Shown in pieces: positions 13,304 through 14,121 of a stretch of DNA of 64,000 nt; the first letter of the stretch is position 1; each line of letters opens with the position of its first letter. Made by a program: the position numbers and the translations under genes. Source of the stretch: Escherichia coli 042 (GTDB lineage Bacteria; Pseudomonadota; Gammaproteobacteria; Enterobacterales; Enterobacteriaceae); the NCBI RefSeq assembly GCF_000027125.1, contig NC_017626.1; one strand, 5' to 3'. The notes beneath the pieces were generated by a model, which saw nothing but the letters and a program-made list of their open reading frames with translations, did not search any database and had not been told where the DNA came from.

Positions 13304-13399
13304 AAAATCATTGCAAAATGAGCCACAAACTGCTTCAATTTCGGTACGCTTCGCATAGCTGTATCGCGAGGCAAATTAAGCGCATGAACTTTAATACAA

Positions 13400-13426
13400 C
13401 CCGCCATTGAGCGGGTTTTGTTGTTT
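13400..13426 (+). terminator. Candidate tR'-type intrinsic terminator
   Basis: cccgc-cattga-gcggg stem-loop followed by ttttgttgttt. Confidence 0.4.
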
Positions 13427-13558
13427 CTGTGGCGTGATATCAGAAACGACATTTAATAATCGCCTTCAAAATAAATTTGTTTATACATTGTCATGTATAT
13501 TTTAAGTGAAAGTGAATTATTCACATAAAATAAAAACACATAAATAAATTTACATAAC

Positions 13559-13590
13559 TTGACGCAAAGTGTTGTTGCGATTGGAATATT
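13559..13590 (+). promoter_or_regulatory. Candidate sigma-70 promoter for the tRNA pair
   Basis: TTGACG then 17-nt spacer then TGGAAT; AT-rich UP-like tract upstream. Confidence 0.25.
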
Positions 13591-13665
13591 AAATCGTATC
13601 ATCGAAAACGGTTCTGAGGGGGAACTCTTCTTTGCTCGGTGATATCGCTCCCCTGAAGAACCAAT

Positions 13666-13741
13666 GCCGACTTAGCTCAGTAGGTAGAGCAACTGACTTG
13701 TAATCAGTAGGTCACCAGTTCGATTCCGGTAGTCGGCACCA
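13666..13741 (+). tRNA. tRNA-Thr (anticodon UGU)
   Basis: Cloverleaf folded by hand: acceptor gccgact/agtcggc, anticodon loop cttgtaa, T-loop ttcgatt, 3' CCA; one mismatch in T stem. Confidence 0.7.
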
Positions 13742-13744
13742 TAT

Positions 13745-13819
13745 GCGGGTATCGTATAATGGCTATTACCTCAGCCTTCCAAGCTGATGATGCGGGTTCG
13801 ATTCCCGCTACCCGCTCCA
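13745..13819 (+). tRNA. tRNA-Gly (anticodon UCC), glyT-like
   Basis: Near-identical to E. coli glyT as recalled, with a compensated acceptor-stem change; anticodon loop cttccaa; 3' CCA. Confidence 0.75.
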
Positions 13820-14121
13820 GCATTTGAAACAAGCCTTATTGTATTGCGGCACTGGCGTATTTTTTTATTACGTGGGAGCAGGTTGTTTTGAAAAAGCATT
13901 CTGTTCTCTGGCTATGATTTGAGGCCGGGTGTAGCCTCAGTGCTGATTTTTTACGGCAGCAGAATGGTGCATTATCGGTGGAGATTTTGTATTTCCTGGC
14001 AGGGTCGGTGATGCATCATTCTGGTGTTGTAAAAGCACCGCAGAGGCGTTCCTCAGGGCGAGGGTGGTTTAAAGAGTCGGTTTAGCGGGAAACCACAGTA
14101 TCCATACGGCACGGAATACTT

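Follow-up and report, generated by a model that had tools for sequence, protein, structure and literature searches.

A stretch of 64,000 nucleotides (nt) from Escherichia coli 042 (assembly GCF_000027125.1, contig NC_017626.1), which we refer to as the window at its full length, contains a full-length Rac-type lambdoid prophage whose late region carries two adjacent tRNA genes, tRNA-Thr(UGU) and tRNA-Gly(UCC). The two genes lie on the late strand, between a unit made up of a Q-like antiterminator gene with its candidate tR' terminator and the lysis genes. Such a two-tRNA late-region operon is an ordinary feature of lambdoid prophages, and an already annotated one; the parts of the locus that are unannotated are a covarying leader hairpin and a structured trailer. 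The host has a single copy of each counterpart, thrU and glyT, and no other tRNA of the host reads the rare codons ACA and GGA efficiently. On balance we favour a functional, self-promoted two-gene tRNA operon of a Rac-family prophage that supplies the thrU and glyT isoacceptors for the AT-richer phage genes, a reading that we hold to be probable.

Two host-like tRNAs separated by three nucleotides

In the 64-kb window ARAGORN finds exactly two tRNA genes, tRNA-Thr(tgt) and tRNA-Gly(tcc), both on the plus strand. Rfam family RF00005 agrees, with 73.8 bits for tRNA-Thr and 65.6 bits for tRNA-Gly; both scores are so far over the gathering score of 29 that chance matches are excluded. The pair is laid out as follows.

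13666-13741, + strand: tRNA-Thr(UGU), called by ARAGORN and Rfam, identical to host thrU
13742-13744, + strand: 3-nt spacer TAT between tRNA-Thr and tRNA-Gly
13745-13819, + strand: tRNA-Gly(UCC), called by ARAGORN and Rfam, glyT with U:A in place of C:G at acceptor pair 6:67

An original prediction, made from the letters of the sequence alone, had proposed this pair with these anticodons, a separation of 3 nt and an encoded CCA at the end of each gene. All of this is borne out: the predictor accepts both structures with the anticodons as proposed, and the spacer and the two CCA ends are read directly in the sequence. The same prediction had the tRNA-Thr resembling thrU and the tRNA-Gly as a near copy of glyT with a compensated acceptor-stem change. 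Alignment to the K-12 thrU-tyrU-glyT-thrT locus gives a closer match for the former than was claimed (76/76 identical positions) and agrees fully with the latter (73/75). The two differences from glyT, T at 13750 and A at 13810, jointly convert C6:G67 of the acceptor stem to U6:A67, so that pairing is kept. A host-identical Thr followed by a Gly with C6T/G66A is the commonest haplotype in arrays consisting of Thr-Gly only (13 loci among the matches listed). Acceptor pair 6:67 is not among the established identity elements for GlyRS. Judged by their sequences, then, both tRNAs appear fit for charging by the host synthetases, the Thr being thrU itself and the Gly differing at 6:67 only.

A predicted promoter and a conserved leader hairpin precede the tRNA genes

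Comparison with related loci suggests that the pair is preceded by a promoter of its own and by a structured leader.

13430-13574, + strand: AT-rich stretch ahead of the tRNA promoter, whose conserved AAATAAATTTACATAACTTGACG motif has TTGACG at 13559-13564
13575-13602, + strand: predicted sigma-70-type promoter of the tRNA operon, -35 TTGCGA (13575-13580), 16 nt, -10 TATCAT (13597-13602)
13610-13662, + strand: conserved 5' leader hairpin, minimum free energy -20.4 kcal/mol, ending 3 nt before the 5' end of tRNA-Thr

In Thr-first arrays, TTGnnn-16-TATYAT stands 85-95 nt 5' of tRNA-Thr in at least six unrelated upstream clusters; in CAU-first arrays the corresponding element is TTGCRN-17-TATYAT, which ends 9 nt ahead of the first tRNA. 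This comparative support argues for a dedicated promoter of the tRNA operon. A promoter between tR' and the tRNAs has been mapped in the Stx2a phage Sp5 (PMC7547250). Several upstream clusters that are otherwise unrelated have the AAATAAATTTACATAACTTGACG motif ahead of Thr-first arrays; the motif is a possible UP element or factor site. The original prediction had placed a promoter-like element at 13559-13590. Its TTGACG hexamer is there, but the supported promoter lies about 16 nt further downstream: pairing TTGACG with TGGAAT as the -10 was dropped, since only TTGCGA-16-TATCAT recurs in unrelated relatives. The best-scoring promoter-like site of the region (10/12), TCGGCA-16-TATAAT at 13733-13760 on the plus strand, is probably spurious, being composed of the tRNA-Thr 3' end and a TATAAT within the D arm of tRNA-Gly.

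Taken as a single sequence the leader hairpin folds with a z-score of only -1.6. Its outer helix, GGTTCN...NGAACC, is more telling: across 30 distinct leaders the sixth pair is U:A in 14, C:G in 13 and U.G in two, with one unpaired, and this covariation identifies the hairpin as a real RNA structure. The distance to the tRNA is 3 nt in 28/30. If transcription started about 7 nt past TATCAT, the hairpin would be the first element of the transcript; protection of the 5' end and presentation of the RNase P site are both possibilities for its role.

A structured trailer RNA and the terminator that closes the unit

Between tRNA-Gly and the holin gene, which starts at 14596, there are 776 nt without a credible open reading frame (ORF); the small ORFs in 13820-14600 encode only 18-41 amino acids (aa), and none is supported. 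The RNA features of this interval are as follows.

13847-14141, + strand: structured RNA trailer, about 300 nt in three domains (covariation; z-score -4.5)
13847-13945, + strand: trailer domain I
13950-14033, + strand: trailer domain II, a long 34-bp hairpin
14043-14141, + strand: trailer domain III
14181-14208, + strand: strong intrinsic terminator, with a stem at 14181-14200 and then T8, that closes the tRNA/trailer unit; the holin gene lies about 390 nt further on

The z-score comes from a single-sequence fold of the segment 13820-14215. Further evidence comes from aligning 24 distinct homologues (identity 81-100%), which gave a consensus of 100 pairs: 99.0% of the cells are paired, against 41-52% when the partners are slid by 1-3 columns. 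Double-sided changes occur at 8 pairs (37 cells), and the slid controls yield at most 3 pairs and at most 7 cells. Several invariant G.U pairs place the structure on the RNA of the plus strand. The 14181-14200 terminator is conserved as helix 13 of the same alignment.

An Rfam search of 13250-14650 at permissive thresholds found no family for the trailer; only the two tRNAs are real matches there, the rest being sub-threshold noise. All 309 E. coli genomes that carry the trailer leave it unannotated. Comparison of the tRNA-to-holin spacer with the nmpC-essD region of K-12 DLP12, where IpeX lies, gave no homology upstream of 14579, and the trailer is absent from that region. A 21-nt core of the trailer is found in at least 92 viral-contig stretches, and 115 of the loci analysed carry it. 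In all viral loci with upstream sequence (89/89), tRNA-Gly(UCC) lies 124-143 nt upstream of the trailer. Many other loci have the Thr-Gly pair without a trailer, namely those in which the holin follows about 375 nt past the junction. Structured RNAs beside tRNAs are familiar from the T4 species 1 and 2 RNAs, the 3' spacer RNA of glyW-cysT-leuZ, and GOLLD and ROOL. The trailer can be likened to these, but has no sequence or Rfam relationship to any of them; with its roughly 300 nt and three domains it is so far known only from enterobacterial lambdoid prophages.

What the trailer does can be framed as three possibilities: it may insulate the lysis genes from a constitutive tRNA promoter, offer an RNase III site in the late transcript, or act in trans. 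Tentatively, and at somewhat less than even chances, we propose that leader hairpin, tRNA-Thr, tRNA-Gly and the undescribed trailer form a composite RNA operon. The trailer would then be a phage non-coding RNA of a new class that takes advantage of tRNA processing. In parallel, the thrU-derived genes of this family are perhaps evolving under pressure from defences that target Thr tRNA, as U16C/U20C, G42U/U43C and the anticodon shifts to UCU and UUU in relatives may reflect.

On the minus strand, a terminator-like hairpin at 14232-14255 converges on the 14181-14200 terminator. It may mark a short transcript running leftward out of the 14260-14595 spacer, for which we found neither an ORF nor an Rfam match.

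The Q-like gene and its candidate late promoter and terminator

The gene upstream of the tRNA operon had been described as Q-like, followed by a hairpin terminator that might be tR'. Both descriptions hold up in domain, profile and structure searches and in a comparison of relatives.

12767-13303, + strand: gene of a Q-like late antiterminator (178 aa, Pfam DUF1133), the final one ahead of the lysis cassette
13328-13378, + strand: Q-linked conserved block, candidate PR'/qut, kept in 23/23 relatives
13398-13426, + strand: intrinsic terminator, candidate tR', stem 13398-13417 with 7 pairs (5 G:C) and a loop of 6

The dominant match of the ORF is DUF1133 (E 8.3e-103). It also matches PHROG 753, 'anti-termination protein Q-like' (E 4e-78), weakly Phage_antitermQ PF06530 (E 7.8e-5, residues 69-139), and Q21 in the Protein Data Bank (chains 6JNX/6P18, E 1.6e-4), where N- and C-terminal motifs agree. 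From its position and these weak matches the protein appears to belong, distantly, to the Q21/Q933W lineage.

By a published definition (bioRxiv 10.1101/651190), a Q cassette comprises, in this order, the Q gene, a PR' promoter that has both a Q-binding element and a sigma-dependent pause element, a terminator, and the late genes. In the window, the block that follows the Q-like gene is present in 23/23 distinct sequences 3' of DUF1133-type Q genes, even where the tRNA promoter and array differ. It holds a small hairpin formed by GCTTCGC (13349-13355) and GCGAGGC (13367-13373), in which one relative (L018) has a compensatory change from C-G to U-A. Because Q must stay with its own binding site, this block is the best candidate for PR'/qut. 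The stem at 13398-13417, which runs into the T-rich tail TTGTTGTTT, is likewise our best candidate for tR'; an intrinsic terminator lies 66-98 nt past the Q stop codon in 23/23 relatives, with loops and flanks that vary.

Within 13304-13397 no consensus sigma-70 PR' passes the promoter scan, and neither reading nor scanning reveals a convincing Q-binding element (two 8-bp direct repeats) or a -10-like pause element. TTGCAA (13311-16), 18 nt and TTCAAT (13335-40) make the best reading of a PR' there; they lack the key A at -11, and we do not claim them. The locus shares with the Q21/Q933W cassettes the position of the gene, a weak but specific similarity to Q21 and PF06530, and the order of a Q-linked block and then a terminator. 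It differs in that Pfam files the protein under DUF1133 and that PR', the Q-binding repeat and the pause element are not recognised. The putative unit from PR' to tR' would also be short: its length would not exceed about 80-100 nt, whereas the unit measures 258 nt in Stx phages and 194 nt in lambda.

Codon usage and the proposed role of the operon

If the tRNAs served the phage's own genes, ACA and GGA would be expected to be common in them, a check that the original prediction had suggested for the late genes. Codons were counted in the genes of the window itself, whose positions were carried over from the annotation of E. coli APEC O1, and were compared with those of 36 host core genes (frequencies per 1000).

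ACA: prophage 13.6, host 5.4; odds ratio 2.5; p 9e-10
GGA: prophage 13.5, host 6.2; odds ratio 2.2; p 1e-7
AGA: prophage 7.0, host 1.0; odds ratio 7.4; p 2e-13
AGG: prophage 3.5, host 0.6; odds ratio 6.0; p 1e-6
AUA: prophage 8.7, host 2.5; odds ratio 3.5; p 9e-10

Both codons are enriched, though not these two alone. In absolute terms ACA and GGA together are the largest block of rare-codon demand, 27 per 1000 against 19 per 1000 for AGA, AGG and AUA. Among the counted genes trkG has the highest density of ACA, GGA and AUA (ACA 20.7 and GGA 26.9 per 1000), with a GC content at third codon positions (GC3) of 0.32. The APEC O1 morons cdtABC are left out of these counts, as the window lacks them and has a sitABCD-like operon in that place.

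We picture the operon working as follows. In the lysogen it would be transcribed from its own sigma-70 promoter, starting near 13609, and these transcripts would stop at the 14181-14200 terminator, so that the lysis genes stay silent. After induction, Q-modified polymerase reading through from PR' next to Q would add further transcription, and the dosage of the operon would rise with phage replication. RNase P and 3' exonucleases would free both tRNAs; given the 3-nt spacing, the RNase P cut at Gly is proposed to free Thr as well. Charged by host ThrRS and GlyRS, the extra tRNAs would make it easier to translate the moron trkG and the phage genes, which are AT-richer.

Several observations weigh against this reading. 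The enrichment of ACA and GGA is real but unspecific: AGA, AGG and AUA are enriched more, without a prophage tRNA for them, and the effect tracks the lower GC3 of the prophage genes (0.48, against 0.57 in the host). The promoter TTGCGA-16-TATCAT scores 9/12 in the promoter scan, which is insignificant alone, 3 sites having been found where 3.6 were expected. Expression of the operon and maturation of its tRNAs are predicted indirectly, from the conserved position of the promoter and from the leader. A host-identical tRNA copy is redundant in the lysogen, and the Rac prophage of K-12 lacks the whole segment that holds the pair. Finally, damaged copies occur in some relatives, with T-loop changes (G57T, C56T, G56A) or truncated 3' ends, and selection is accordingly relaxed in at least some prophages.

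The Thr-Gly pair belongs to a family of prophage tRNA arrays

Scanning viral contigs for the exact pattern '...CACCA, 0-12 nt, glyT start' returned at least 120 loci. Among the matches listed, Thr-Gly stands alone in 49 loci and follows other tRNAs in longer arrays, CAU-Lys(UUU)-Thr-Gly in 23 and CAU-Arg(UCU)-Thr-Gly in 17, besides rarer forms. The CAU tRNA resembles ileX (68-70/76 positions), and the second tRNA of the longer arrays is a single argN/O-like body with differing anticodons. Wherever the flanking genes of the matches listed are recognisable, a Q-type gene precedes the array, and holin, lysozyme and Rz follow it. The spacer between Thr and Gly is TAT in 98/107 adjacent pairs among the viral-contig matches listed, across unrelated contexts. 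At least eight unrelated upstream classes and at least two downstream classes flank the pair, with different Q and lysis modules. Anticodon, CCA ends and cloverleaf are intact in the great majority of the copies listed.

The original prediction had contrasted the Thr-Gly pair with the ileZ-argN-argO set typical of Stx phages. This contrast does not stand: relatives carry ileZ-like and argN/O-like tRNAs directly before Thr-Gly. Since the pair stands directly behind CAU and Arg or Lys tRNAs there, the two sets belong to one array family as modules, and are not alternatives. Both the cluster of the Stx phages 933W and Sp5 and the pair in the window lie past Q, PR' and tR' and before late, toxin or lysis genes, and both consist of tRNAs for host-rare codons ending in A. 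The window differs in having only Thr(UGU) and Gly(UCC), with exact or near-exact host sequences, in its DUF1133-type Q, and in its 53-nt leader hairpin and structured trailer.

The pair had also been thought to be captured from the host. Part of this holds, in that both tRNA sequences are those of the host thrU-tyrU-glyT-thrT-tufB operon, exactly or nearly so, and follow in host order; capture from that operon is plausible. The flanks give no evidence for it. Similarity to the host operon extends no more than 1-2 nt past either mature tRNA, a BLAST search with 7-nt words having found nothing further out, so capture cannot be demonstrated from the flanks. The prophage operon lacks tyrU, thrT and tufB, has a spacing of 3 nt instead of the host's 8 + 85 + 116 nt, and its promoter, leader and flanks are unrelated to those of the host. 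The constant TAT junction indicates one old Thr-Gly fusion that later spread by recombination, in which case any capture would not have been made by this phage.

Three further observations come from related arrays. In the LT-IIb prophage SerU (L003, KU052038, 1122-1197) the annotated 'tRNA-Arg(UCU)' is thrU with G35C, A31G, G24A, U16C and U20C. Two viral contigs (L010, L078) have a thrU body with the anticodon UUU, 74/76 identical to thrU. In some Thr-first arrays (L113, L131, L160) the 'leader' 5' of tRNA-Thr is a decayed argN/O-like tRNA; arrays thus shrink through tRNA decay as well as through deletion.

Alternative explanations

tRNA-Thr(UGU) is a recurrent target of bacterial defence. P2-OLD, the effector through which P2 excludes lambdoid phages, has it as its main target (PMC12445682), and it is a prime target of PARIS AriB, which cuts between C40 and A41 and contacts U16 (PMC12409363). 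HepS cleaves Thr tRNAs as a secondary target (PMC13043305), and the toxSAS FaRel2 picks tRNA-Gly and tRNA-Thr through acceptor pairs 1, 2, 4 and 5 (PMC11245113). The phage might therefore carry the pair to replace tRNA-Thr and tRNA-Gly destroyed by such systems, and the relatives lend this idea some substance. Among the matches listed, about 30 of 107 Thr copies (viral loci L005-L124) have U16C with U20C, and U16C impaired AriB cleavage of tRNA-Lys (PMC12409363). G42U/U43C is found in 4/107; by it the CAG half of the CNG motif is lost and the anticodon stem shortened, and a broken CNG motif and a shortened anticodon stem have been reported for OLD-resistant phage tRNA-Thr (PMC12445682). Many arrays moreover join Lys(UUU) to Thr(UGU), both prime AriB targets. 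The recurrent substitutions are suggestive of defence pressure on the family. The tRNA-Thr in the window itself, however, is the susceptible host tRNA. With no nuclease-determinant substitution relative to thrU, it retains the P2-OLD motif (CUG at 13693-95, CAG at 13705-07) and the AriB determinants (UAAUC|A at positions 36-41, U16 at 13681). It shares its anticodon and target isoacceptor with the nuclease-resistant tRNA-Thr(UGU) by which T4/T5-type phages counter PARIS and OLD, but those are substituted at cleavage determinants, as only some of its relatives are (PMC12445682, PMC12409363). Being host-identical and keeping every published P2-OLD and PARIS determinant, it is excluded as a nuclease-resistant escape allele, and only a dosage effect is left to it. 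Resistant phage Thr tRNAs rescue cells from P2-OLD, but overexpression of the host's tRNA-ThrU protects them little or not at all (PMC12445682). The change at 6:67 of tRNA-Gly falls outside the FaRel2 determinants, and FaRel2 comes from a Firmicute. For this locus we therefore regard counter-defence supply as unlikely.

The pair could instead be a largely neutral passenger, a near-invariant 155-bp recombination anchor at a lambdoid mosaic junction that is homogenised against the host genes. Its varied neighbours, with at least eight upstream and two downstream classes and changing Q and lysis modules, are what such an anchor would have; host homology restricted to the tRNA bodies is what gene conversion would leave, and the existence of decayed copies fits as well. 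Yet anticodons, CCA and cloverleaf are mostly intact, the common Gly substitution is compensated, and the promoter position and leader hairpin are conserved, the latter with covariation. Together, the intact tRNAs, the compensated change and the covarying leader indicate purifying selection on an expressed RNA, and we give the neutral passenger little credence. It is also conceivable that the tRNAs are processing handles, with RNase P cuts that define the ends of the structured RNA or punctuate the Q-antiterminated late transcript, the structured RNA being the actual product. The covarying trailer is tied to tRNA-Gly at its narrow range of distances in every one of the 89 loci, and its 34-bp hairpin would be an RNase III-type substrate. 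Against this, the many arrays that hold the pair without a trailer imply that the pair is kept independently, and a mere handle would have no need of an intact anticodon or identity elements; we consider this explanation very improbable. A self-promoted operon that supplies thrU and glyT isoacceptors to the phage is the reading we retain.

Prophage context and distribution

Over most of its length the prophage is 97-99.6% identical to a prophage of E. coli APEC O1 (NC_008563, about 1.468-1.512 Mb), from whose annotation the gene order can be read. It starts with intR, xisR, ralR, recT, recE, kilR and sieB, then immunity and replication genes; continues with QueH, hok, DUF1367, DUF1364, DUF1133, tRNA-Thr, tRNA-Gly, essD, rrrD, Rz and trkG; and ends with terminase, a P22-type capsid and a lambda-type tail. 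Through this annotation we recognize the marks of a Rac-type prophage: the intR-xisR-ralR-recET-kilR-sieB early region, trkG past the lysis genes, and the host neighbours uspF, ompN and micC. Rfam places MicC at 50292-50412 in the window.

14596-14811, + strand: holin gene, followed by lysozyme and Rz

Both tRNAs are already annotated in the APEC O1 RefSeq record. The 517-bp region that contains them is present, with at least 80% of its length covered, in 190 of 5,426 complete E. coli genomes. Matches to the region query number 6,861, spread over 5,420 genomes; with one host locus per genome subtracted, about 1,400 extra places are left, an arithmetic count whose individual places were not inspected. 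A Thr-Gly pair is also annotated in phage records such as vB_EcoS-683R6, LT-IIb prophage SerU, Stx2f phage phi467 and JLK-2012. In the literature on Rac or lambdoid Thr/Gly tRNAs we found passing mention only: a paper on Stx2f phages mentions both tRNA loci in passing.

Several neighbours of the operon deserve a note of their own. A few genes 5' of the tRNA pair, at 10335-11021 on the plus strand, lies a gene for the epoxyqueuosine reductase QueH (DUF208), a tRNA-modification enzyme that is also found in several related loci at 94-100% identity. It is followed at 11089-11414 (plus strand) by a hok/sok type I toxin-antitoxin locus, recognized by an Rfam sok match of 119.6 bits and a Hok/Gef-family ORF. 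APEC O1 has a Doc-family toxin gene directly 3' of hok/sok, which the window lacks. Rz is immediately followed by trkG (15889-17364, plus strand), an order shared with K-12 Rac. Between the tail-fibre end of the prophage and uspF, a four-gene, sitABCD-like metal ABC transporter operon occupies 44324-47773 on the minus strand; at this position APEC O1 has cdtABC type IV and other genes, with the permease only as a frameshifted remnant.

Implications

The covarying leader and trailer RNAs go unannotated in hundreds of genomes. With its two bases of difference from glyT, the prophage tRNA-Gly makes expression of the operon readable from tRNA-sequencing data of common strains, for instance E. coli W, in which the region is 97% identical. 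The tRNA-Thr is a copy of thrU, the tRNA that P2-OLD and PARIS destroy, and copies of thrU are widespread in the very phages that P2 excludes, which makes them a natural place for dosage or escape effects; among these copies, the window supplies the susceptible baseline allele.

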